Assembly (NCBI GenBank): GCA_036656055.1
Contig: JAVVOY010000003.1
Coordinates: forward strand, 27,754-91,753
Length of the DNA stretch: 64,000 nucleotides
Source: Bacteroidales bacterium
GTDB taxonomy: Bacteria; Bacteroidota; Bacteroidia; Bacteroidales; G3-4614
Reading direction: 5' to 3'
Shown: positions 2,334 through 47,724 of the stretch, one piece after another
Layout of the letters: the number at the start of each line of letters is the position of its first letter
Numbering within the stretch: the stretch's first letter is position 1
Translations under genes and position numbers: made by a program
Notes under the pieces: model-generated
Seen by the model: only the letters and a program-made list of their open reading frames with translations
What the model was told of the DNA's origin: nothing
Databases searched by the model: none

Positions 2334-3803
2334 TTATTTGTTACGCAATGCTTCGTCCATTGATTTTGCAGCCCTGAGACCATCGCCCATTGCAAGTATT
2401 ACGGTGGCTCCTCCGCGGACGATATCGCCTCCGGCGTAAAGGTCGGAGATGTCTGAACGCATTGTTGTTTCATCGACAATTATTGTCCCTTTTTTGCTTA
2501 TCTGTAATCCTTGAATTGAATTGGGTATTAACGGATTTGGCGAAACGCCTACGCTGACGATAACTTCATCTATGTCAATTGTTTCAATTGCTCCTTCTAT
2601 CGGTTCTGGTGAACGTCTGCCTGAAGCATCGGGTTCTCCGAGTTGCATTTTCTGGAGACGCATTGATTTTACGTGCCCTTTTTCGTCGCCTATGTATTCT
2701 ATTGGGTTGTGAAGTGTCATGAACTCTACTTGTTCTTGTTTTGCATGGTGTATCTCTTCTACGCGTGCGGGCATCTCTTCTTCGCTGCGACGATAGACGA
2801 TAATGGCGCGTTCGGCTCCGACGCGTTTTGCTGTCCTTACTGAGTCCATTGCTGTGTTACCTCCGCCTATTACGGCAACGTTTTTGCCTTTTATCATTGG
2901 TGTTTCTGAATCTTTTTCGGCTGCACCCATAAGGTTTACGCGGGTGAGGTATTCGTTGCTGGACATGACTCCGATAAGGTTCTCTCCCGGGATATTCATG
3001 AATCGGGGCAATCCGGCACCACTGCCGATGAATATGCCTTTGAATCCATTTGTGTGTATGTCGTCGTATGAGATGGTTTTGCCTACAATGCAGTCTGTGA
3101 TAAATTCAACCCCCATTTTGCGTAGGTTGTTTATCTCTACGTTGACGATGTTGTTGGGTAGACGAAATTCGGGAATGCCGTATTTGAGAACACCACCTAT
3201 TTCGTGAAGGGCTTCAAAAACGGTAATATTGTAACCGCGTTTTGCCATCTCTCCTGCAAAGGATAGTCCGGCGGGACCAGAGCCTACTACGGCTATCTTT
3301 GTTCCGTTCTTCTCTTTTATTTCAGTGGTGGTAATATTGCCACTTTCGCGTTCATAATCGGCGGCAAATCTCTCTAAATAACCTACGGCAACTGGCTCTT
3401 TGCCGAGTTTGAGTTTATAAAAACAGAATGATTCGCACTGTTTCTCCTGTGGGCATACTCGTCCGCAGACTGCTGGAAGTGTGCTGGTCTTTTTGAGTGT
3501 TTTTGCTGCTTCGAGGAACTCTCCGCGCTCAATGTTTTTTATGAAGGTTGGGATGAATATGTTTACAGGGCACCCTTCCATGCATCTTGGGTCGGGGCAG
3601 TCGAGGCAGCGGGATGCTTCGCGTTGCGCCTGTTCTGAGGTGAGCCCGCAGTTTACTTCTTCATTGTTTGTTATGCGGTAGGCGGGGGAGAGCTCATTCA
3701 TTTTAACGCGCTCTATTTCTGTCCTATCTTTGCTCTTTTTCTCTTTGCGCAATGTTTCACGCCACTCTTCGGCTCTTTGCGCTAATGCTTCTTCTTTACT
3801 CAT
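2334..3803 (-). CDS. GltD-family NADPH-dependent oxidoreductase (glutamate synthase small-subunit-like / NfnB-like)
   Basis: 489 aa. N-terminal Cys clusters (CLDCPDPRCMEGCP, CGRVCPQEKQCE), two dinucleotide-binding motifs (VVGSGPAGLS, VIGGGNTAMD) and C-terminal AGGD. Confidence 0.8.
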   Translation of the reverse strand: MSKEEALAQRAEEWRETLRKEKKSKDRTEIERVKMNELSPAYRITNNEEVNCGLTSEQAQREASRCLDCPDPRCMEGCPVNIFIPTFIKNIERGEFLEAAKTLKKTSTLPAVCGRVCPQEKQCESFCFYKLKLGKEPVAVGYLERFAADYERESGNITTTEIKEKNGTKIAVVGSGPAGLSFAGEMAKRGYNITVFEALHEIGGVLKYGIPEFRLPNNIVNVEINNLRKMGVEFITDCIVGKTISYDDIHTNGFKGIFIGSGAGLPRFMNIPGENLIGVMSSNEYLTRVNLMGAAEKDSETPMIKGKNVAVIGGGNTAMDSVRTAKRVGAERAIIVYRRSEEEMPARVEEIHHAKQEQVEFMTLHNPIEYIGDEKGHVKSMRLQKMQLGEPDASGRRSPEPIEGAIETIDIDEVIVSVGVSPNPLIPNSIQGLQISKKGTIIVDETTMRSDISDLYAGGDIVRGGATVILAMGDGLRAAKSMDEALRNK

Positions 3804-3848
3804 AATAATCTGTGTGACGGACTGTATTTTCCGTCTTCCTTGTAAAAT

Positions 3849-4640
3849 TTATTCTATCTCTTTGTATGATGATAAGCGCATAAGCATTTCATCGAAATTA
3901 ACTTGATGTGCATCAAATTCAGGGCCGTCAACGCATACAAATTTTGTCTTCCCGCCAACGGTTATGCGACATGCTCCGCACATACCTGTTCCATCAACCA
4001 TAATGGTGTTCAGTGACGCTACTGTGGGAATGTTATACTTCTTTGTGAGGAGTGAAACGAATTTCATCATTATAGCTGGACCTATTGTTAAGCAGAGATC
4101 TATTTTTTCGCGCAAGATTATCTCTTCGGCTCCGTTTGTTACAAGTCCTTTTTTGCCGCTGGAGCCGTCGTCGGTCATTATTATTACTTCATCGGCATTT
4201 GCTCGCATCTGCTCTTCGAGTATTATCAACTCTTTTGTGCGGGCGGCGAGGATAACGATTACTTTGTTCCCTGCTTTTTTAAATGCTTCGACAATGGGGA
4301 GTAGTGGCGCTACGCCTACTCCTCCTCCGCAACATAGCACTGTCCCTACTTTTTGAATATGCGTGGCTTGTCCGAGAGGACCTACTACATCTGTCAGATA
4401 ATCCCCAACCTCAAGTGAACATATCTTCTTTGTGGATTTTCCTACAGCTTGTATCACAAGAGTTATTGTCCCTTTTTGTGAATCTGACTGTGCAATTGTA
4501 AGAGGTATTCTTTCGCCTTTTTCTCCGGCGCGTACTATCACAAAGTGTCCTGCTTTTCGTGCTTTTGCTATAAGTGGGGCTTCGACAACCAACTTAATGA
4601 CATTTTCTGAAAAATGCTCTTTTCCTATAATCTTGTTCAT
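3849..4640 (-). CDS. sulfide/dihydroorotate dehydrogenase-like FAD/NAD-binding subunit (NfnA-like)
   Basis: 263 aa with a ferredoxin-reductase-type fold (GHFVIVR, CCGGGVGVAPL) and a C-terminal Cys cluster CGACRITVGGKTKFVCVDGPEF. Adjacent to and co-oriented with the GltD-like gene. Confidence 0.75.
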   Translation of the reverse strand: MNKIIGKEHFSENVIKLVVEAPLIAKARKAGHFVIVRAGEKGERIPLTIAQSDSQKGTITLVIQAVGKSTKKICSLEVGDYLTDVVGPLGQATHIQKVGTVLCCGGGVGVAPLLPIVEAFKKAGNKVIVILAARTKELIILEEQMRANADEVIIMTDDGSSGKKGLVTNGAEEIILREKIDLCLTIGPAIMMKFVSLLTKKYNIPTVASLNTIMVDGTGMCGACRITVGGKTKFVCVDGPEFDAHQVNFDEMLMRLSSYKEIE

Positions 4641-4838
4641 GTTATATAATCATGATATTTTGTGGCATAAAAGTCTATAATGCTGTATTAAAGCACAAAG
4701 ATAGATATTTTTGAAGGAGTAGCCATAAAATTGCTGAAAAATACTCCTTTTACCTAAAATGGCAGTGGTGTATTAAAAAATTGTCCGGATGTTTTTTTGT
4801 GTCGGTTGAAATAACTAAATTTGCAGCATAATTTATGT

Positions 4839-4881
4839 GGAGGGATTTGGCTGCTTGCAACCACAGAAAAAAATGCTAAAA
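4839..4881 (+). promoter_or_regulatory. candidate SAM-responsive riboswitch core (SAM-II-like) in the metK leader
   Basis: GGAGGGAUUUGGCUGCUUGCAACCACAGAAAAAAAUGCUAAAA lies ~85 nt upstream of the metK ATG. It resembles, from memory, the SAM-II core GAUUU..GGCU..UUGCA.CC...AAAGCUAAAA. Not verified with a covariance model. Confidence 0.35.
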
Positions 4882-4965
4882 CTATATCTGTTCCGTTCTG
4901 GAAAGGTGGTAGTGAAAATCCTCTCACATAGTTAGTATAAACGTTTTCTCATAAAATTAATTGCT

Positions 4966-41224: not shown

Positions 41225-41449
41225 GTTTTATTTATATCTTTGCCCTTGAACAATCCAAAAGAGGGAGGTGGCTCTTATCCACCCCCCTTGAAAGCTACCA
41301 CTTAACCATTACGGTGATAGTTGCTTTTCCGATTTTGAAGCTGATTTTCAATTCTTTAACTTCCATTTTTTTTATCGGTTTTGGATTGTTTTTTCCTACT
41401 CTTTTTGAGGTTTTCGGATGCTCCTTTGTAATCGCTCTCTGATACTCTA

Positions 41450-41663: not shown

Positions 41664-41860
41664 ATAGGTGTACTTTTACCATACATATAAATATACCCTT
41701 GATTTTAAGTTAATTGAACTTTTGGACGTGTGGGTGTTAAAATCTATACCCCTACGTGCATAGTCAAACAGAGGGGTAATAGCAGTTTAAAGCACTTATA
41801 TATAGCTTGTTACATGGCGTGTATGGGTAGGGTGCGAAAAATATCTTATGCGGGACTTTT

Positions 41861-42592
41861 TTACTCTAAGCGGATTACACCTATGACTGTGGAGAGGCTG
41901 CGTATCTCGGTCTTATATAGGGAAAATGGCGGGTATTGGGGGTTATCAGACTTGCAGATAATTTTATCCTCGTCTCCATCGCATGGCAAAACACGCTTAA
42001 CCATTGCTCCCTGCAGGCTATCTAACACATATACCCTGCCCCACTGAAAAAAGGTTATAGCGCTTATTTTACGGCAAGCCAGCATGTCGCCATTATTATA
42101 CAGGGGTGACATAGAGGATCCGCTGACACGTATGAGATACTCGGCTCCGGCCGCCTCAAAATCCGGTATATTATATCTGATACACTCTGCAAGGGTAACG
42201 TCTGATACGTCGTCTCCGTTATAGCCGGCTATGCAGTCTATGGGTATAAGTGGTATACCGGCATTTTCCGCCATCGGTACAAGGAGGGCAGAGGTAGGAT
42301 TTTTATCTTTTATTGTCGTAGAAGTAGGCTCGGCAGCAATAGAGGGGGTAGTATCGGGGGTATACTCGGCCTTACACATCTCCCCCTCCCCTGTCAAAAG
42401 CCATTCGGGAGATACATCGAGACTTCTCACTATTTTTTCAAGAAATGGGTATTTAGGTATTATACTGGTTTTATATCCTCTTATATTTGCCTCACTTTCA
42501 TCTATAATCCTTGCAAAGACAGTATTTTTACCGTTACCAAAGGTGGTTACAAGATGTGAAATCCTCTCGTGAATAGTACCTAATTTTTCCAT
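41861..42592 (-). CDS. CI/LexA-type phage repressor (N-terminal HTH + C-terminal S24 peptidase domain)
   Basis: N-terminal XRE-like HTH (VFARIIDESEANIRGYKT). The C-terminal domain has the Ser-Lys dyad context RVSGSSMSPLYNNGDML...MVKRV. Confidence 0.85.
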   Translation of the reverse strand: MEKLGTIHERISHLVTTFGNGKNTVFARIIDESEANIRGYKTSIIPKYPFLEKIVRSLDVSPEWLLTGEGEMCKAEYTPDTTPSIAAEPTSTTIKDKNPTSALLVPMAENAGIPLIPIDCIAGYNGDDVSDVTLAECIRYNIPDFEAAGAEYLIRVSGSSMSPLYNNGDMLACRKISAITFFQWGRVYVLDSLQGAMVKRVLPCDGDEDKIICKSDNPQYPPFSLYKTEIRSLSTVIGVIRLE

Positions 42593-42608
42593 ATTATAAA
42601 ATAAAACG

Positions 42609-42628
42609 AATTATTTCGCGAAATAATT
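42609..42628. promoter_or_regulatory. 20-bp perfect palindrome AATTATTTCGCGAAATAATT (candidate operator)
   Basis: Located in the 117-bp divergent region between the repressor gene and the rightward early genes. Confidence 0.55.
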
Positions 42629-42650
42629 TTCATATATCGAAACATCTCTC

Positions 42651-42658
42651 TATATTTG
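42651..42658 (+). promoter_or_regulatory. TATATTTG -7 box, candidate early rightward promoter
   Basis: TAnnTTTG match 52 nt upstream of the Ner-like ATG. Confidence 0.4.
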
Positions 42659-42709
42659 CGTCATCGTTTGAAATCAAAAGCGCCTGTAAATGTACTAAAA
42701 AAAAACAAT

Positions 42710-42883
42710 ATGAAGGAGATCATTACAAAACACGGTGAGGTAAGGCAAATTGCCAAACTCATATCTGTCAGCGAGGAGACAACTAAGAATGCCCTTAAAG
42801 GGAGGACAAAATCGGTGCTTGCTGCAAAAATAAGGGCACTTGCAATTGAGCGCGGTGGCGCAGAACTCAACCGAAAAAAGTAA
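42710..42883 (+). CDS. small HTH protein in the Ner/Cro position
   Basis: 57 aa, MKEIITKHGEVRQIAKLISVSEETTKNALKGRTK... It is the first rightward gene opposite the repressor. Start at ATG 42710. Confidence 0.55.
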   Translation: MKEIITKHGEVRQIAKLISVSEETTKNALKGRTKSVLAAKIRALAIERGGAELNRKK

Positions 42884-42931
42884 TCAATAACAAACAATCA
42901 GCCCTCGCACAACACGGCAAAGTGCAATATT

Positions 42932-43153
42932 ATGGCAAGATTTAACAGAGTAGAGTTCTCTATGAGACACTCAAATACCCGCGGATTATACTGGATTGAG
43001 GCAACTTACAGGGGTAGGGATATTAAGGTGCTCACCAACGACAGCGAGGTTTTTGACTGGTACGACGACAACTCGGACAAAGCTAAGCATCAGGAGGCTT
43101 TGAGGCACTGCTACAATAATATTAAACGGCAATACGAAGGGCTATGCAATTAA
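42932..43153 (+). CDS. hypothetical early protein (73 aa)
   Basis: ORF in the early operon; function not recognised. Confidence 0.45.
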   Translation: MARFNRVEFSMRHSNTRGLYWIEATYRGRDIKVLTNDSEVFDWYDDNSDKAKHQEALRHCYNNIKRQYEGLCN

Positions 43154-43416
43154 TTATAGCCCTTATGGAAAGATTAATGGATTGGTTGGAAATGGGGTGC
43201 GTGTTGTTGGCTGCGATATTAACTGTAATTGTGGCAACTGTGCAGACGGTATTGGCTGTTTTTTATTACCCTGCCGTGGGATGGGTGCCGATGGTGATTA
43301 TGTGGGGTTTGGCATGGTTGGTTTGCGGTATGGCTGCCAATAGATTAAGGGAATATAAGGAAGAGGGGAATACGGACGATGAGAGTAAAATAAAAAGTGA
43401 TGGAAAAGTCGACTAA
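43144..43416 (+). CDS. hypothetical two-TM membrane protein (90 aa)
   Basis: Two hydrophobic helices plus an acidic/basic C-terminal tail. Overlaps the previous ORF by 10 nt. Confidence 0.45.
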   Translation: MQLIIALMERLMDWLEMGCVLLAAILTVIVATVQTVLAVFYYPAVGWVPMVIMWGLAWLVCGMAANRLREYKEEGNTDDESKIKSDGKVD

Positions 43417-43493
43417 AGGCCTCCCCGCTCCGCGCAACAAACCAGATAGACGATAGGTGTGACAGATCCTCGCGCATGATGCCGCGAGGTGAG

Positions 43494-43559
43494 CTCCGGA
43501 AAAGGTGGTATCAAGGCGGTAAAAACAACATGAGGCGGGTTCGACTCCCGCTCCGGAGA
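43494..43559 (+). ncRNA. tRNA-like acceptor/T-arm minihelix (not a canonical tRNA)
   Basis: CTCCGGA (43494-43500) pairs with TCCGGAG (43552-43558). The T-arm is GCGGG-TTCGACT-CCCGC (43535-43551), with discriminator-like A at 43559. The intervening 34 nt cannot form D and anticodon arms. Confidence 0.3.
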
Positions 43560-43593
43560 CAATAAAGAGATAAAAGAACAAGAAGATATAATA

Positions 43594-45681
43594 ATGCCGG
43601 AGTTTTATACGGACATAAAAAATAACAGGGCGATTTTGGTTGTAAATTACAGCGAGCTTGTACCGAGATTTTATAGCAGTGTAGCGTCTCTGTGCAACGC
43701 TGTAAGGCGCAGCGAGAAGCGAGGTTATGGATTGCGTCGTATAACGAGGGGTCATAATATGGGGGTGGCACAGATTGAGTATGACAGTTTGCCTATGAAT
43801 GTTAGGGAGCAAATGGATGACCCGCGCCGTGAGGTGCAGGCGGTGGAAGGATTTTATAACTATCTGCTTGACGCGGAGCGTTTTTACATGAATTATATGC
43901 TGCCTGATAACAGGCGTATTGCTGCCGATATACAGGTTAAGTATGCGATTAATGCCTCTACCATTGAGGCCGTTTTGGCTCTTAAAGGCGAAAGGGAGAG
44001 GTTGTTTGCCCGCTGCAATAGGCGTCCAAAAAAGCTATGGGAGGGGTTATGTGCTGATGCAATAAGTTTTAAAGAGATACAGCGCAAGCGTTGGCAGCAT
44101 GAGCATACTTTGCCTGAGAATTATCGCCGGTTTAAGGAGGCGTGTGAGGCGTATGAGTGGGCTAAGGATAAGCAGGTAGCTTATGAGTGTCTTATTAGTG
44201 GCAAGCATATTAGTTGTAGTGTGACGGGTGCGCGTAAGGTGGACACCAAAATGTATAGTCTTTTTGAGAGTTTATTTACCGCTAAGGGATATAAGCCTAA
44301 TTACAAGGATGTTTATGATGAGTATATGGCTTTTTTGCGCGGCGAAAAGGAGATTGTGAGCAATGAGACAGGCGAGGTGTTATCGCCTGCAGAATATAAA
44401 GAGGTGAGTCCTGCAACGGTACGTGCTTATTTGACGCGCTGGGAGAGTAAGGCTGCCACGTTGAGGTTGCGCACAGGTGACCGCCAGAAGTTGATGGGCG
44501 AAACTAAGCCTTATCACAGTATGGCGGAAGCTGAGTATGCAGGAAGCTTATTGAGCGTGGATGATCGACAGCCTCCGTTTGAGTATGGTGACGGTAAGCG
44601 TGTGTGGTTTTATCTTGGCTACGACCTTGGTGCTGATTGTTATACGACAATTGTATGGGGCAGGGACAAGAAAGGTATTATACTTGATTTTTACCGCCAG
44701 ATGGTGCGCAATTATGCCGAGTGGGGTTTGTCTCTGCCTGCAGAATTGGAGGCGGAGAGTAACCTGAACGCGAGCTATAAGGAGACATTTTTGCGTGAGG
44801 GTAATATGTTTGAGTTTGTAAGGATTGAGGCTAATAATGCCCGCGGTAAAAAGATTGAGAACAGAAACCGTGCCATGCGTTATGGTGACGAGAGACGCAG
44901 CGAAGGGTGGATTGCTCGTCCGTTTGCAGGTAGTGAGGCTAACCGTGCGGGGGTGGAGAGGGTTACAGTTTTGCCGTTTGACACTATTGTGGAGCAGACT
45001 TTGCGAAGGTATGAGAAATGGAATAATGACCGCCACCCGCGACATACAGAGATGTCGCGCTGGGAGTTTTTTATGAAGCGACAGAACCCGAATTTAAAGC
45101 CCATTAATTGGTTTGGTATTATACCGTTTCTGGGTATTAAAGTAAAGAGTAGTTGTCACACCGGTATTGTAAGATTGTGTAACAGTGAGTGTTTATTGGG
45201 TATTGACGGTAGGGTTGCAGTTGGTGAGGAGCTTATTGGATTGATGAAGTTAGTAGAGGGCGAGGAATTGACGGTGAGGTATTTGGATGGCAACGACGGT
45301 AAGGTGCTAAAGGCATTTGCTTATATGGGAGAACAGTTTGTTTGCGAGTTGGTACAGAAGCCTATTTACTCTCGCGCAAGGGTTGAGCAGACTGCCGGCG
45401 ATATTGCTAACCGTGAGGTAATGAGTAAGTATGTTGCCACTATTGAGGGGTATGGCAACCGTAGGAAAAAGGGTATTGAGAAGGTTACTGTTATTGAGGG
45501 GGAGAGAAAGAGCGAATACGTAAGCCCTGAATATAGGTTTTTTACCCCGCAAACAGGTGTAACACCAACGGTGGAGAGTGCTACCAACAGTGTCTTTGCA
45601 GAGATTTTACCGGAGGCAACGGACGAGGATTTAAAGGGCGATAAAAGGTCGTTTAAACGGAGTTTTGCAGAAACGTTTTAG
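43594..45681 (+). CDS. Mu A-like DDE transposase
   Basis: 695 aa, comparable to MuA. LLSVDDRQ and IEANNARGKKIENRNRAMRY resemble the integrase-core D and GKIER-type E contexts. It is followed directly by an AAA+ MuB-like gene. Confidence 0.75.
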   Translation: MPEFYTDIKNNRAILVVNYSELVPRFYSSVASLCNAVRRSEKRGYGLRRITRGHNMGVAQIEYDSLPMNVREQMDDPRREVQAVEGFYNYLLDAERFYMNYMLPDNRRIAADIQVKYAINASTIEAVLALKGERERLFARCNRRPKKLWEGLCADAISFKEIQRKRWQHEHTLPENYRRFKEACEAYEWAKDKQVAYECLISGKHISCSVTGARKVDTKMYSLFESLFTAKGYKPNYKDVYDEYMAFLRGEKEIVSNETGEVLSPAEYKEVSPATVRAYLTRWESKAATLRLRTGDRQKLMGETKPYHSMAEAEYAGSLLSVDDRQPPFEYGDGKRVWFYLGYDLGADCYTTIVWGRDKKGIILDFYRQMVRNYAEWGLSLPAELEAESNLNASYKETFLREGNMFEFVRIEANNARGKKIENRNRAMRYGDERRSEGWIARPFAGSEANRAGVERVTVLPFDTIVEQTLRRYEKWNNDRHPRHTEMSRWEFFMKRQNPNLKPINWFGIIPFLGIKVKSSCHTGIVRLCNSECLLGIDGRVAVGEELIGLMKLVEGEELTVRYLDGNDGKVLKAFAYMGEQFVCELVQKPIYSRARVEQTAGDIANREVMSKYVATIEGYGNRRKKGIEKVTVIEGERKSEYVSPEYRFFTPQTGVTPTVESATNSVFAEILPEATDEDLKGDKRSFKRSFAETF

Positions 45682-45710
45682 TATGGATATTATTATATAA
45701 TTATAGAGAA

Positions 45711-46610
45711 ATGAATACTACTAAGGAGTTTAAGGAGAAGGTAACAGAGGCTTTGCTAAGGGTAAGGCAGATGTTTGACGGCAGTGATGCTATGTTTGCC
45801 AAACAGCAGGGGTTGAGTGCTGCGGTATTCTCGCGCCTGAAGGGTGGCGAAACGGAGCGGATTATAAGTGAGGCGCAGTGGCTGAATATTGGCAGGCGTT
45901 TAGGTGTTACGATGTGCGAGAGGCGGTGGAATATAGCGAGGACGGATGTTTTTAACACAATAGAGGAGGAGGTTTTGTTTTGCGCAGAGAACAGCAAAGC
46001 CCGTATATTTATCGACGACTGCGGTATTGGTAAGACGTTTACGGCTAAGTATATGAGCCGTAATGTTAAGAACTGTTTTTATATAGATGCGAGCCAATGT
46101 AAAACGAAGAATAAGTTTATACGCTTGTTGGCGCGCACACTTGGTGTTGACGGCAACGGTACGTTAACAGATGTATTGGAGGGGATAAAGTATTATTTGA
46201 CTACTCTGCCGCGTCCGGTGGTGATAATTGATGAGGCGGGGGATATGGAGTATTCTGCTTTTTTGGAGATAAAAGCCTTATGGAACGCTACGGAGGGCGT
46301 GTGTGGGTGGTATATGATTGGCGCGGACGGCTTGGCTGCTAAGATAGAGAGGGGTATTGTTGGCCGTAAGGTTGGTTTTAGGGAGATTTTTAGCCGTTTT
46401 AGTGAGAAATATAGTAAGGTTACGCCTGTGGATAAACAGGAGCGTAAACAGTTTTACAGGAAGTTAATTGGTGATGTATTGGCTGCCAACACTGTGGATA
46501 AGGAGTTGATACCTGAGATTGTTAACAAATGCCTTATACAGGTAGACGGTAATATTGGTGGCTTGAGACGCGCAGAGTCTCTGTTGTTGTTAATGAGGGG
46601 GGGCATATAA
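45711..46610 (+). CDS. MuB-like AAA+ ATPase (transposition target-capture protein)
   Basis: Walker A FIDDCGIGKTFTAKY and Walker B VVIIDEAGD, an N-terminal HTH-like region, and position immediately after the transposase. Confidence 0.7.
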   Translation: MNTTKEFKEKVTEALLRVRQMFDGSDAMFAKQQGLSAAVFSRLKGGETERIISEAQWLNIGRRLGVTMCERRWNIARTDVFNTIEEEVLFCAENSKARIFIDDCGIGKTFTAKYMSRNVKNCFYIDASQCKTKNKFIRLLARTLGVDGNGTLTDVLEGIKYYLTTLPRPVVIIDEAGDMEYSAFLEIKALWNATEGVCGWYMIGADGLAAKIERGIVGRKVGFREIFSRFSEKYSKVTPVDKQERKQFYRKLIGDVLAANTVDKELIPEIVNKCLIQVDGNIGGLRRAESLLLLMRGGI

Positions 46611-47278
46611 TGGGTAAGCTAAAGTCTATATCTATAAGTAATTTGTATAGCAAGAGATTTGCTGCTATGCCTCTTGCTACAGGTGTGTTTGGAGATGTGC
46701 TTGGTTGTGGTACGGATGCTATTCCTAAGGGGGGAGTGTGGCTTATACACGGGGACGAAAAACAGGGTAAAACAACGCTGTGTTTGTTGTTGGCTAACTA
46801 TTTGGCGCAGAGTAATAAGGTGGTTTATATACAGGCGGAGCAGAGTTGCAACGTGTTTGATATTGACAAGATTTTTGTTGAGGCGATGCAGCGGGTTGGT
46901 ATAGGTAGTGATAAGAGGTCTTTGTCTTTTTTTGGAGATATTACCCCCGCTGAATTGACGGAGGTATTGGGGCGCAAACGGTCTGCTGATATTGTTTTTA
47001 TTGATAATATAACGTTTGCCGAGTGGGTAGATACGCGGTTGGTGAGGGGACTTACTAAGAGGTTTCCGCGCAAGACGTTTGTTTACGTGGCGCATAACGA
47101 CCGAAATGGCGACCCTAACGGCACCACCGGCAAGGCGATTAAACGGCTTGCTAATACGGTGTTTGTTGTTGATGCTTTGCGCTGTAAGGTTTTTGGGCGT
47201 GGCAGCTGGGGTGGCACGGTTAATATTGACGCACAGGCGGGGCGTGTGATGTATGGTGGTGAGGGTATTAATGATTAA
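46610..47278 (+). CDS. RecA/KaiC-fold P-loop NTPase (function unknown)
   Basis: Walker A GDEKQGKTT and Walker B-like IVFIDNITF. ATG overlaps the upstream TAA. Confidence 0.5.
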   Translation: MGKLKSISISNLYSKRFAAMPLATGVFGDVLGCGTDAIPKGGVWLIHGDEKQGKTTLCLLLANYLAQSNKVVYIQAEQSCNVFDIDKIFVEAMQRVGIGSDKRSLSFFGDITPAELTEVLGRKRSADIVFIDNITFAEWVDTRLVRGLTKRFPRKTFVYVAHNDRNGDPNGTTGKAIKRLANTVFVVDALRCKVFGRGSWGGTVNIDAQAGRVMYGGEGIND

Positions 47279-47289
47279 TTATAGGTGTT

Positions 47290-47724
47290 ATGGAGACAAC
47301 GATTAATAAGAGGGCGCAGCTGCTACGCAGGGTGCATGTGTTGTTTGGCAACCTTGCAATGGGTGAGAGTGACAGGCTTGCGGTTTTGGGTGGCTATGGG
47401 GTGGTGAGTTGCCGTGAGCTTACGGATGTGGCTCTGTTGGATTTGTGTGTGCTACTGGGTATGTTGGATAGGGGTAGGCGCACGGAGGTGGATTTGTGGC
47501 GTAAGCGCGTTATGGCAGCGATTGGCGGGTTGTTGCGCGAGGAAGGGAGAGAATGCAGTGCGAGGGTTATTATCTCTATTGCCTGCCGTGCGGCGGGGGT
47601 ACAGGATTTTAATCGTATAGGGGTTGACCGCTTAAGGAGCCTTTATAATGCGTTTACTAAGCGCGGGCGCGACCTGCGTGAGGTATCGGCGGTTATGGAG
47701 GAGGTATTGATGGGTATGCTGTAA
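47290..47724 (+). CDS. GemA/Mu gp16-like regulatory protein (DUF1018-like)
   Basis: The pattern KRAQLLRRVHVLFGNLAM...LGGYGVVSCRELTDVALLDL matches my recollection of the gp16 family. Confidence 0.45.
   Translation: METTINKRAQLLRRVHVLFGNLAMGESDRLAVLGGYGVVSCRELTDVALLDLCVLLGMLDRGRRTEVDLWRKRVMAAIGGLLREEGRECSARVIISIACRAAGVQDFNRIGVDRLRSLYNAFTKRGRDLREVSAVMEEVLMGML

Follow-up and report, generated by a model that had tools for sequence, protein, structure and literature searches.

The described systems closest to the RNA element that we report here are the t-elements of plant mitochondria, non-canonical tRNA-like sequences found with the screen GGTTCRANYCC, which set the 5' and 3' ends of mRNAs through RNase Z and RNase P; their acceptor/T module is the signal for both enzymes, and the released element can be stable (PMC1920247). 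The RNase Z of Bacillus subtilis touches T-arm and acceptor stem only, cuts after the discriminator nucleotide and is repressed by CC and CCA trailers (PMC7479834). Our element lies at positions 43494-43562 (+ strand) of a 64,000-nucleotide (nt) stretch of contig JAVVOY010000003.1 from a Bacteroidales metagenome-assembled genome (MAG); this whole stretch is called the window below. The element sits in the early operon (+ strand) of a Mu-like prophage, between the last small early open reading frame (ORF) and the transposase gene. We tentatively read it, with a probability of about 0.4, as a divergent member of an undescribed, phylum-spanning class of phage RNAs, mimics of the tRNA top half of 45-90 nt that punctuate early operons, would recruit RNase P, RNase Z and possibly the CCA-adding enzyme, and would cut, stabilise or dose phage mRNAs. 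The compact form of this class, which we name class A, would have a pseudoknotted elbow (A14, G18, G19, A21 and a Levitt-like pair) and has no D or anticodon stem.

Bacterial tRNAs can also be co-transcribed with mRNAs, as in the Escherichia coli thrU-tyrU-glyT-thrT-tufB operon, where tRNA maturation sets the 5' end of the mRNA. A tRNA-like fold within a longer transcript is the handle for RNase P (and RNase Z) in mascRNA (MALAT1), in the C4 RNA of phages P1/P7 and in the CI RNA of phage P4. Finally, the early genes of phage T7 are separated by RNase III sites, at which the polycistronic RNA is cut and which leave protective hairpins.

The leader that carries the window element spans 177 nt, from an ORF stop at 43416 to the transposase ATG at 43594, as had been stated in an earlier annotation made from the letters alone (hereafter the sequence-only reading). 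The T-arm named there, GCGGG-UUCGACU-CCCGC at 43535-43551, agrees exactly with the sequence. It has a 5-bp stem, the G53-C61 closing pair and a 7-nt loop of the UUCRANN type, it is a perfect fit to the T-arm consensus of tRNA and transfer-messenger RNA (tmRNA), and a sixth stem pair (G43534.U43552) is possible. Stacked directly on the T stem is an acceptor-like closing helix, in which CUCCGGA (43494-43500) and UCCGGAG (43552-43558) form 7/7 Watson-Crick pairs, again as claimed; this helix is seen in both the minimum free energy (MFE) fold and the centroid fold. The resulting stack of 12 bp (7+5) is that of tRNA, and it is followed by an unpaired tail, ACAA (43559-43562), which consists of a discriminator-like A43559, a C and AA, and is an NCCA look-alike with C75 changed to A. 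In place of the D arm, the anticodon arm and the variable region there is a purine- and A-rich linker of 34 nt (43501-43534), which contains GG dinucleotides (AAGG, GGUGG, AAGGCGG) and no convincing stems; the absence of D and anticodon arms was borne out by ARAGORN, Rfam and folding. The element is co-oriented with the transposase gene and lies 35 nt before its ATG. Past the tail, the A-rich mRNA leader of 31 nt (43563-43593) is unpaired in the MFE fold and fits the typical Bacteroidota style of leaders without a Shine-Dalgarno (SD) sequence. A separate hairpin, CCUCGCG-caugaugc-CGCGAGG (43468-43489), which had also been noticed before and is confirmed by sequence and MFE fold, ends 4 nt 5' of the closing helix. 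No U-tract follows it, and no T run is found after 43489 or after 43551, which rules out an intrinsic terminator.

Like the t-elements, the window element places a conserved T-arm of the GGTTCRANYCC type (here GGTTCGACTCC, 43538-43548, in the gap that separates the transposase gene from the last small early ORF) inside an mRNA precursor beside coding regions. It differs from them in belonging to a bacterial virus and in wholly missing the bottom half of the tRNA (the linker has 34 nt here and 11 nt in class A), and its cleavage is a matter of inference. With the tRNA-mRNA operons it shares a tRNA-shaped module 5' of an ORF in one transcript, and a homologous locus (L105, see below) has a real tRNA-Met in the same place; however, the window element has no anticodon arm, cannot decode and is ARAGORN-negative. 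The tRNA-like domain of tmRNA likewise joins an acceptor helix and a T-arm to a reduced, stem-less analogue of the D-loop, whereas the window element has no G3:U70 pair, ACCA end, tag frame or pseudoknots. The mascRNA, C4 and CI RNAs are unlike it in being single-copy, cloverleaf-like or built with an antisense loop, and in being known to Rfam (mascRNA-menRNA, C4). The T7 sites resemble what we propose here as repeated intercistronic structures for a host RNase, but they are long irregular hairpins rather than a tRNA top half, and the presumed enzyme also differs.

Taken on its own, the window sequence provides marginal, weak evidence for such an element. ARAGORN called 0 tRNA and 0 tmRNA genes in the window. 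Rfam recognised the T-arm alone, by positions 347-363 of the tmRNA model RF00023 (16.6 bits vs a gathering score of 47), and the Rfam tRNA model gave no match to the element even at E<=10. Thus these checks, which the sequence-only reading had proposed, call no canonical tRNA, tmRNA or other family at the element. The MFE fold reproduces the minihelix with z = -0.82 for 73 nt, and z = +0.49 was obtained for the 177-nt leader; neither value is significant against shuffled sequences. When the upstream sequence is shuffled, ~5% of the shuffles contain an uninterrupted closing helix of 7 bp or more (p ~0.05).

Several identities were rejected. A canonical tRNA has a cloverleaf, and the element has only its T-arm and a 7-bp acceptor-like helix, without D and anticodon arms. 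A tmRNA is contradicted by the negative ARAGORN tmRNA mode, the lack of a tag frame and pseudoknots, the absence of a G.U pair in the helix and the score far below gathering. No match to C4 was found in the window and the related loci at permissive thresholds, which removes an RNase P-processed RNA of the C4/CI type, and a viral 3' tRNA-like structure was rejected as the element is internal, 5' of an ORF and in a double-stranded DNA, Mu-like prophage. Minus-strand matches to Plastid-ycf2 (15.6 and 17.7 bits) are far under threshold and were dismissed as the antisense of the tRNA-like top half.

The stronger evidence comes from the same position in homologous transposase loci. By profile-based retrieval, which was needed because a single-protein scan of viral contigs found nothing, we assembled from genomes and viral contigs 160 loci whose transposases are homologous to that of the window (38-50% identity); another 14 loci came from 12 of the closest relatives (transposase identity 50-66%). 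The DNA of the leader region had no match in isolated phages. A strict T-arm search (5 pairs, G53-C61, TTCRANN; both strands) in the 160 loci found such hairpins 71-fold enriched in the 0-200 nt 5' of transposase starts, with 18 in 31.6 kb there and 17 in 2.13 Mb elsewhere. The sole hairpin of this type on either strand of the 64-kb window is the one at 43535-43551.

Among the nearest relatives, L165 (65% identity) and L169 (61%) carry GGGGC-15 nt-(G)UGGGG-UUCGACU-CCCCA(C)-GCCUU or GCCCC; L167 (66%) carries GAGGU-15 nt-GCGGG-UUCGAUU-CCCGC-C-ACCUC-GCACAAAG; L164 (58%) carries GUCAGAG-42 nt-UGAGG-UUCGAUU-CCUUG-C-CUCUGAC-CAAAA before a 57-aa ORF just 5' of the transposase; and the contig of L166 (66%) begins within the T-loop. 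Compared with the window, the T stem shows compensatory changes in L165 and L169 (UGGGG/CCCCA) and is identical in L167. Between L165 and L169, UU becomes CC in the 3' strand, so that two of its pairs with the proximal GGGGC change from G.U to G-C. Read from the opposite strand, the G.U pairs of L164, L165 and L034 would appear as A.C mismatches; therefore, the element is a structure of the + strand RNA. Small hairpins 0-6 nt 5' of the element also recur, in L165 and L169 (AUGUG-gagaga-CACAU), in L167, in the oral-phage group (with G.U pairs) and in mycobacteriophage Send513. In L169 we also observed that the public call of the transposase homologue P0010 (720 aa, 2501-4663) runs N-terminally through the tRNA-like element, the conserved start being the ATG of MPE... 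at 2582.

The occupants of this slot vary. L105 has a genuine tRNA-Met(CAU), which ends 46 nt before the transposase ATG. The elements of L041 (46 bits) and L169 (43 bits) score above the Rfam tRNA threshold, yet they are ARAGORN-negative and have no anticodon arm. The tmRNA model aligns to the minihelix of L034 over acceptor and T-arm only, and a below-threshold score of 29 bits with the tRNA-Sec model gives L165 a weak likeness to a long-arm tRNA. In L297 (transposase identity 53%) a perfect compact class A element lies 21 nt before the ATG. In L034, L041 and L134, too, the element is followed by the ACAA tail of the window. Hence the proposal of an RNA-level tRNA mimic is supported by tRNA-like structures at the same position in relatives, by sequence changes in both helices, by strand-specific G.U pairs, by the tRNA-Met and the anticodon-less tRNA-like elements in the slot and by the very strong covariation of the related class A (below). 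Among the outcomes that would speak against it, the sequence-only reading had named a lack of conservation and covariation in homologous phages and a conserved small ORF, and neither of these was observed. The ORF in question, a basic frame of 29 codons (43476-43565), does exist and opens with an ATG, which is the one point for the suggestion that it, and not the RNA, is the selected feature. Its frame, start and stop are unconserved in L165, L169, L167, L164 and L034, and the short peptides shared in those loci (GFDS, VRLP) fall in different frames and are forced by the T-arm DNA. The ORF was thus ruled out as the selected feature, and we give that suggestion practically no weight.

The same comparison bears on the idea that the window copy is functionless now, being either the decaying remnant of a phage tRNA or a DNA repeat made of TCCGGA palindromes. 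The two hexamers are indeed present, as the sequence-only reading had cautioned, but they are incidental, because the helices of the relatives are non-palindromic. A DNA-level palindrome or repeat was therefore rejected: TCCGGA is unused in the relatives, and the G.U pairs are specific to one strand. Decay of a tRNA could account for the failure of the window copy to qualify as class A, for its modest helix and folding statistics, for the patchy occurrence among close relatives, for the faint likeness of L165 to tRNA-Sec and for a relic half-copy 123 nt upstream. However, random decay is unlikely to remove all of the bottom half and yet spare a flawless 12-bp top half, several relatives show such selective retention with other helix sequences, and the ACAA tail agrees with the conserved tail of the functional-looking class A. 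In sum, we consider a functionless remnant or repeat quite unlikely.

The half-copy mentioned above is a segment at 43408-43445 (+), GTCGACT..CCCGCTCCG..CAACAAA, which parallels TTCGACT-CCCGCTCCG-GAGACAATAAA of the element and overlaps the stop codon of the ORF 43144-43416. It cannot fold as an element, since the 5' T-stem partner is absent. Judged by its sequence, it is probably what remains of the 3' half of another tRNA-like copy, which would explain the direct repeat of the 9-mer CCCGCTCCG at 43424 and 43547, correctly described before. An 8-mer, GCTCCGGA, is also repeated, at 43493 and 43550.

Class A has a consensus of 45 nt, UUUU-UCCCG-A-N-N-GGCA-N-R-C-N-[6-bp stem]-UUCGAGY-[6-bp stem]-CGGGA-RCAAAA. 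Its test set was drawn from IMG/VR by a scan whose pattern had N throughout the T stem, at the variable linker sites and in the tail, so that pairing was not selected for. The resulting alignment A3 comprises, among the matches listed, at least 129 elements from at least 120 contigs, with at least 54 distinct sequences. In A3, 98.7% of cells are paired and 10 of the 13 pairs show compensatory changes; 0/500 shuffles reach the observed values, and slid-register controls give 38-53% paired cells. The closing helix has 5 bp (6 bp in ~40% of copies), and the 6-bp T stem stands directly on it, which makes a stack of 11-12 bp, as against 7+5 in tRNA. A lone pair, n1:n3, flanks N-GGCA (UA 24, AU 14, CG 6, GC 5), and the next linker base, n4, pairs with nucleotide 7 of the T-loop (GC 26, AU 25, GU 3). 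The tail was unconstrained by the pattern, yet it is conserved as R (48/54), C (52/54), A/U (47/54) and A (51/54); this R-C-W-A tail is an NCCA look-alike without C75. The same extended structure holds in A2, a separate set collected 5' of transposases. By analogy with tRNA, the linker may supply A14, a Levitt-like 15:48 pair, G18, G19 and A21, and so build an elbow without D and anticodon stems. No family of Rfam 15 matches class A in 18 loci at permissive thresholds, and a full-text literature search found no description of the motif; class A is thus apparently an undescribed, widespread phage RNA motif.

Among the matches listed, the genes directly 3' of class A encode Mu-like transposases (37), SNF2-like helicases (24), YopX-like proteins (16) and serine recombinase/resolvase-like proteins (16); others are a methylase, a primase-like protein and small ORFs. 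The spacing from class A to the start codon varies from 5 to >100 nt and is ~72 nt, with an SD sequence, in the SNF2-like group. Bacteroidota Mu-like contigs have 2-3 copies each. In L034 the early operon opens with class A, and another minihelix, similar to the tRNA-like domain of tmRNA, lies directly before the transposase. Streptomyces phage Joe (L293, NC_054674) has 8 unannotated copies at 43055-47672 on the minus strand, co-oriented with the genes, which fill successive intercistronic gaps from gp79 to gp65. They mostly start ~7-20 nt past the upstream stop codon and are mostly followed by a hairpin, an SD sequence and a start codon; their closing helices vary from copy to copy (GGGUG/CACCC, GCCUG/CAGGC, GCGCG/CGCGC). 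Mycobacteriophage Send513 (L290, NC_042033) has at least 5 copies in the intergenic gaps of a 5-kb stretch (41829-45937), and the Riemerella phages CRP6 (L292, ~2503-2545) and PJN03 have one copy apiece. A BLAST search with a Joe copy returned 187 phage records, mostly of Streptomyces and Mycobacterium phages, the weakest of which are T-arm-like matches only. No class A copy was found in phiC31.

Two further observations were made at class A loci. On the reverse strand of L289, a non-Mu contig from a human-associated sample, tandem copies (3893-3931 and 3970-4008) lie 38 nt apart; the L289 group has SD-like AGGAGA leaders, which suggests that its host is probably not a member of Bacteroidota. 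In Bacteroidota, locus-specific inverted repeats are found 5' of class A (for example L059 2865-2905, L297 2400-2440, L165 725-765) and end ~5 nt before the element. Their arms include TCACTATA/TATAGTGA, TGCTTACAT/ATGTAAGCA and ATTAAAT/ATTTAAT, and they flank a conserved TTTnAAGTTTGAC/TTAGAC motif; one example reads TCACTATA..22 nt with TTTnnnTTAGAC/TTTGAC..TATAGTGA. These repeats are either operators bracketing a promoter, for which adjacent divergent start codons and the TTTG-type motif speak, or a large RNA stem, for which a few U.G wobbles speak, and they were not used as evidence.

The window element is not a strict member of class A, as its linker has 34 nt instead of 11, the core A-N-N-GGCA-N-R-C-N is absent and the models align to the T-arm only. 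The loop is UUCGACU instead of UUCGAGY, and neither the Levitt-like pair nor the pair between linker and T-loop can be assigned. No other copy was found in the prophage part of the window. The features in common are a T-arm with a UUCGA-type loop and a G-C closing pair, a stack of ~12 bp, an ACAA/RCWA tail, a co-oriented start codon 20-40 nt 3', a frequent small upstream hairpin and the slot before homologous transposases (L297). Because the stack, tail, position, hairpin and slot are shared, we treat the window element as a long-linker variant. It would belong to a continuum, suggested by sequence comparison, that leads from a real tRNA (L105) through anticodon-less forms (L041, L169a, L165, L134, L164) to class A. 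Class A itself differs from the mitochondrial t-elements in its conserved R-C-W-A tail and in forming multicopy arrays in phage early operons.

The occupants of the slot share the acceptor/T-arm stack and the elbow, the parts of a tRNA that RNase P, RNase Z and the CCA-adding enzyme recognise, which makes these tRNA maturases candidate readers. The multicopy, co-oriented intercistronic layout and the flanking hairpins lead us to rate a processing or stability signal handled by these enzymes as the most likely function, at slightly less than even odds. The hairpin that looks protective lies on the downstream side in actinophages and on the upstream side in Bacteroidota and in oral-sample phages, the window included. 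Under this proposal, 43494-43562 would be transcribed within the early + strand operon and fold as a tRNA top-half mimic, RNase P would cut at the 5' edge of the helix, and RNase Z or an equivalent would cut after A43559. Three products would result: an mRNA of the upstream small genes ending in the 43468-43489 hairpin, a candidate protector of the 3' end; a free tRNA-like RNA of ~65 nt; and a transposase mRNA with a 5'-monophosphate on its A-rich leader, whose stability and translation would be uncoupled from the upstream genes. The C-A/U-A tails (CAA in the window) would avoid the CC/CCA trailer that blocks RNase Z, for which the known behavior of that enzyme is a precedent.

The structure could instead stay on the transposase mRNA without any RNase P or RNase Z cut, as a 5'-untranslated element that stabilises the message, insulates the A-rich initiation region or binds a protein or the ribosome. 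Such a role would agree with elements that all point the same way as a start codon and end ~5-40 nt ahead of it, with Bacteroidota Mu-like copies that often stand right after a promoter/operator-like region, where they would be near the mRNA 5' end, and with variants that lack the T-loop and retain the outer helix and the tail. Yet the distance to the start codon varies, a generic stabiliser needs neither mimicry of the elbow nor real tRNAs in the slot, and the 8 copies in one Joe operon speak against gene-specific regulation; we regard an uncut leader structure as unlikely. A riboswitch was rejected outright because of the up to 8 copies in one operon. We also dropped the idea that the linker GGCAU base-pairs with AUGCC in the start region of transposases, as GGCA is equally conserved before unrelated genes.

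The multicopy arrays in early operons would also provide a high early dose of a released RNA. A mini-tRNA acting in trans, perhaps after CCA addition, could serve as a decoy or sponge for acceptor-modifying toxins, tRNA-targeting defence nucleases or a tRNA enzyme, and the tandem copies of L289 would suit this role, as would a fold that copies the tRNA surfaces read by proteins, including the elbow nucleotides and an NCCA-like tail. We find it very unlikely: the strict placement just 5' of ORFs suggests a role in cis, and an RNA without an anticodon arm cannot decoy the best-known anticodon nucleases. The spacing of the Bacteroidota copies has still another conceivable explanation, a promoter-proximal RNA that acts on RNA polymerase in processive antitermination, like HK022 put or lambda nut. 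Of the two or three copies per contig, one stands where the early operon begins or before the transposase, and another lies 4-6 kb downstream at what is likely a later transcription unit; the distribution of putL and putR resembles this two-site layout. However, 8 copies in 4.6 kb (Joe) and several in 5 kb (Send513) do not fit it, ~900 nt separate the window copy and the early promoter (-7 box TATATTTG), and mimicry of the tRNA elbow has no known link to RNA polymerase, so that antitermination appears highly improbable.

Several observations weigh against a divergent class member that is processed by tRNA maturases. The closing helix of the window is only marginally non-random and has no direct covariation support of its own; the class A covariance model R1, run with filters off, aligns to the window T-arm only (11.8 bits), and R2 gives no match at E<=1. 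About 6 of the 14 nearest relatives (L161, L162/163, L168, L295, L296, L298) have no comparable element 5' of the transposase. The element is therefore dispensable, and by sequence comparison it is recurrent but dispensable in this slot. Cleavage at the window element is purely inferred, and by analogy with the B. subtilis enzyme the lone C after the discriminator could partly inhibit RNase Z. Many Bacteroidota Mu-like class A copies stand just 3' of a likely promoter/operator region, where punctuation of a polycistron is less obviously needed. Finally, L012 2904-2955, L013 2939-2991, L139 735-787, L084 291-343 and L165 763-806 keep the outer helix and the tail without a T-loop, which hints that the function is not strictly bound to tRNA enzymes.

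These T-arm-less variants, of which L059 2327-2381 is a sixth, keep the outer helix and an RCAAA tail and have the T-arm replaced. In some of them the replacement is a hairpin with a CAUCGC-type loop, which could pair with the GCG of the linker (a possible pseudoknot); in others it is a short unrelated insert.

The prophage around the window element has the gene order repressor, operator and -7 box, small helix-turn-helix-like ORF, two small ORFs, 177-nt leader, transposase and AAA+ gene. The S24-type repressor gene (41861-42592, minus strand) is divergent from the first early ORF, and the early regulatory region between them (42595-42665, +) contains a perfect palindrome, AATTATTTCGCGAAATAATT, with the Bacteroidetes-type -7 box TATATTTG (42651-42658) beside this operator palindrome. 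The TTG at 42656 was probably annotated as the start in error; the ATG at 42711 (MKEIITKHGE...) suits better. The Mu A-like DDE transposase (695 aa, 43594-45681, +) is a 100% match to a protein of a Bacteroidales MAG, and its relatives are annotated as 'Mu transposase, C-terminal'. A MuB-like AAA+ gene (45711-46610, +) follows directly, and the neighbor genes in related loci carry AAA_22, DUF3164 and Phage_Mu_Gam domains. Two other RNA motifs were observed in the window: a SAM-II riboswitch aptamer of the long-loop variant at 4831-4889 (+; 67.1 bits vs a gathering score of 44), and a DUF805b RNA motif at 41393-41427 (-; 40.1 bits vs 35.6), at or just outside the left edge of the early region.

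Class A is unannotated and missing from Rfam, and it causes errors in gene calling, such as the N-terminally extended transposase of L169. It is testable in cultivable phages such as Streptomyces phage Joe and mycobacteriophage Send513. If our reading is true, no natural mimic of the tRNA elbow plus acceptor stack would be smaller than the 45-nt class A, which would bear on the way in which RNase P, RNase Z and the CCA-adding enzyme gauge their substrates and on the tRNA top half as an independent, ancient module. Should tRNA maturases cut these elements, a minimal tRNA top half would serve phages from Bacteroidota to Actinobacteria as a portable processing signal, and bacterial viruses would have a counterpart of mitochondrial tRNA punctuation. 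This would also explain how long early operons yield separately stable messages, including that of the Mu-like transposase, for which dosage matters.

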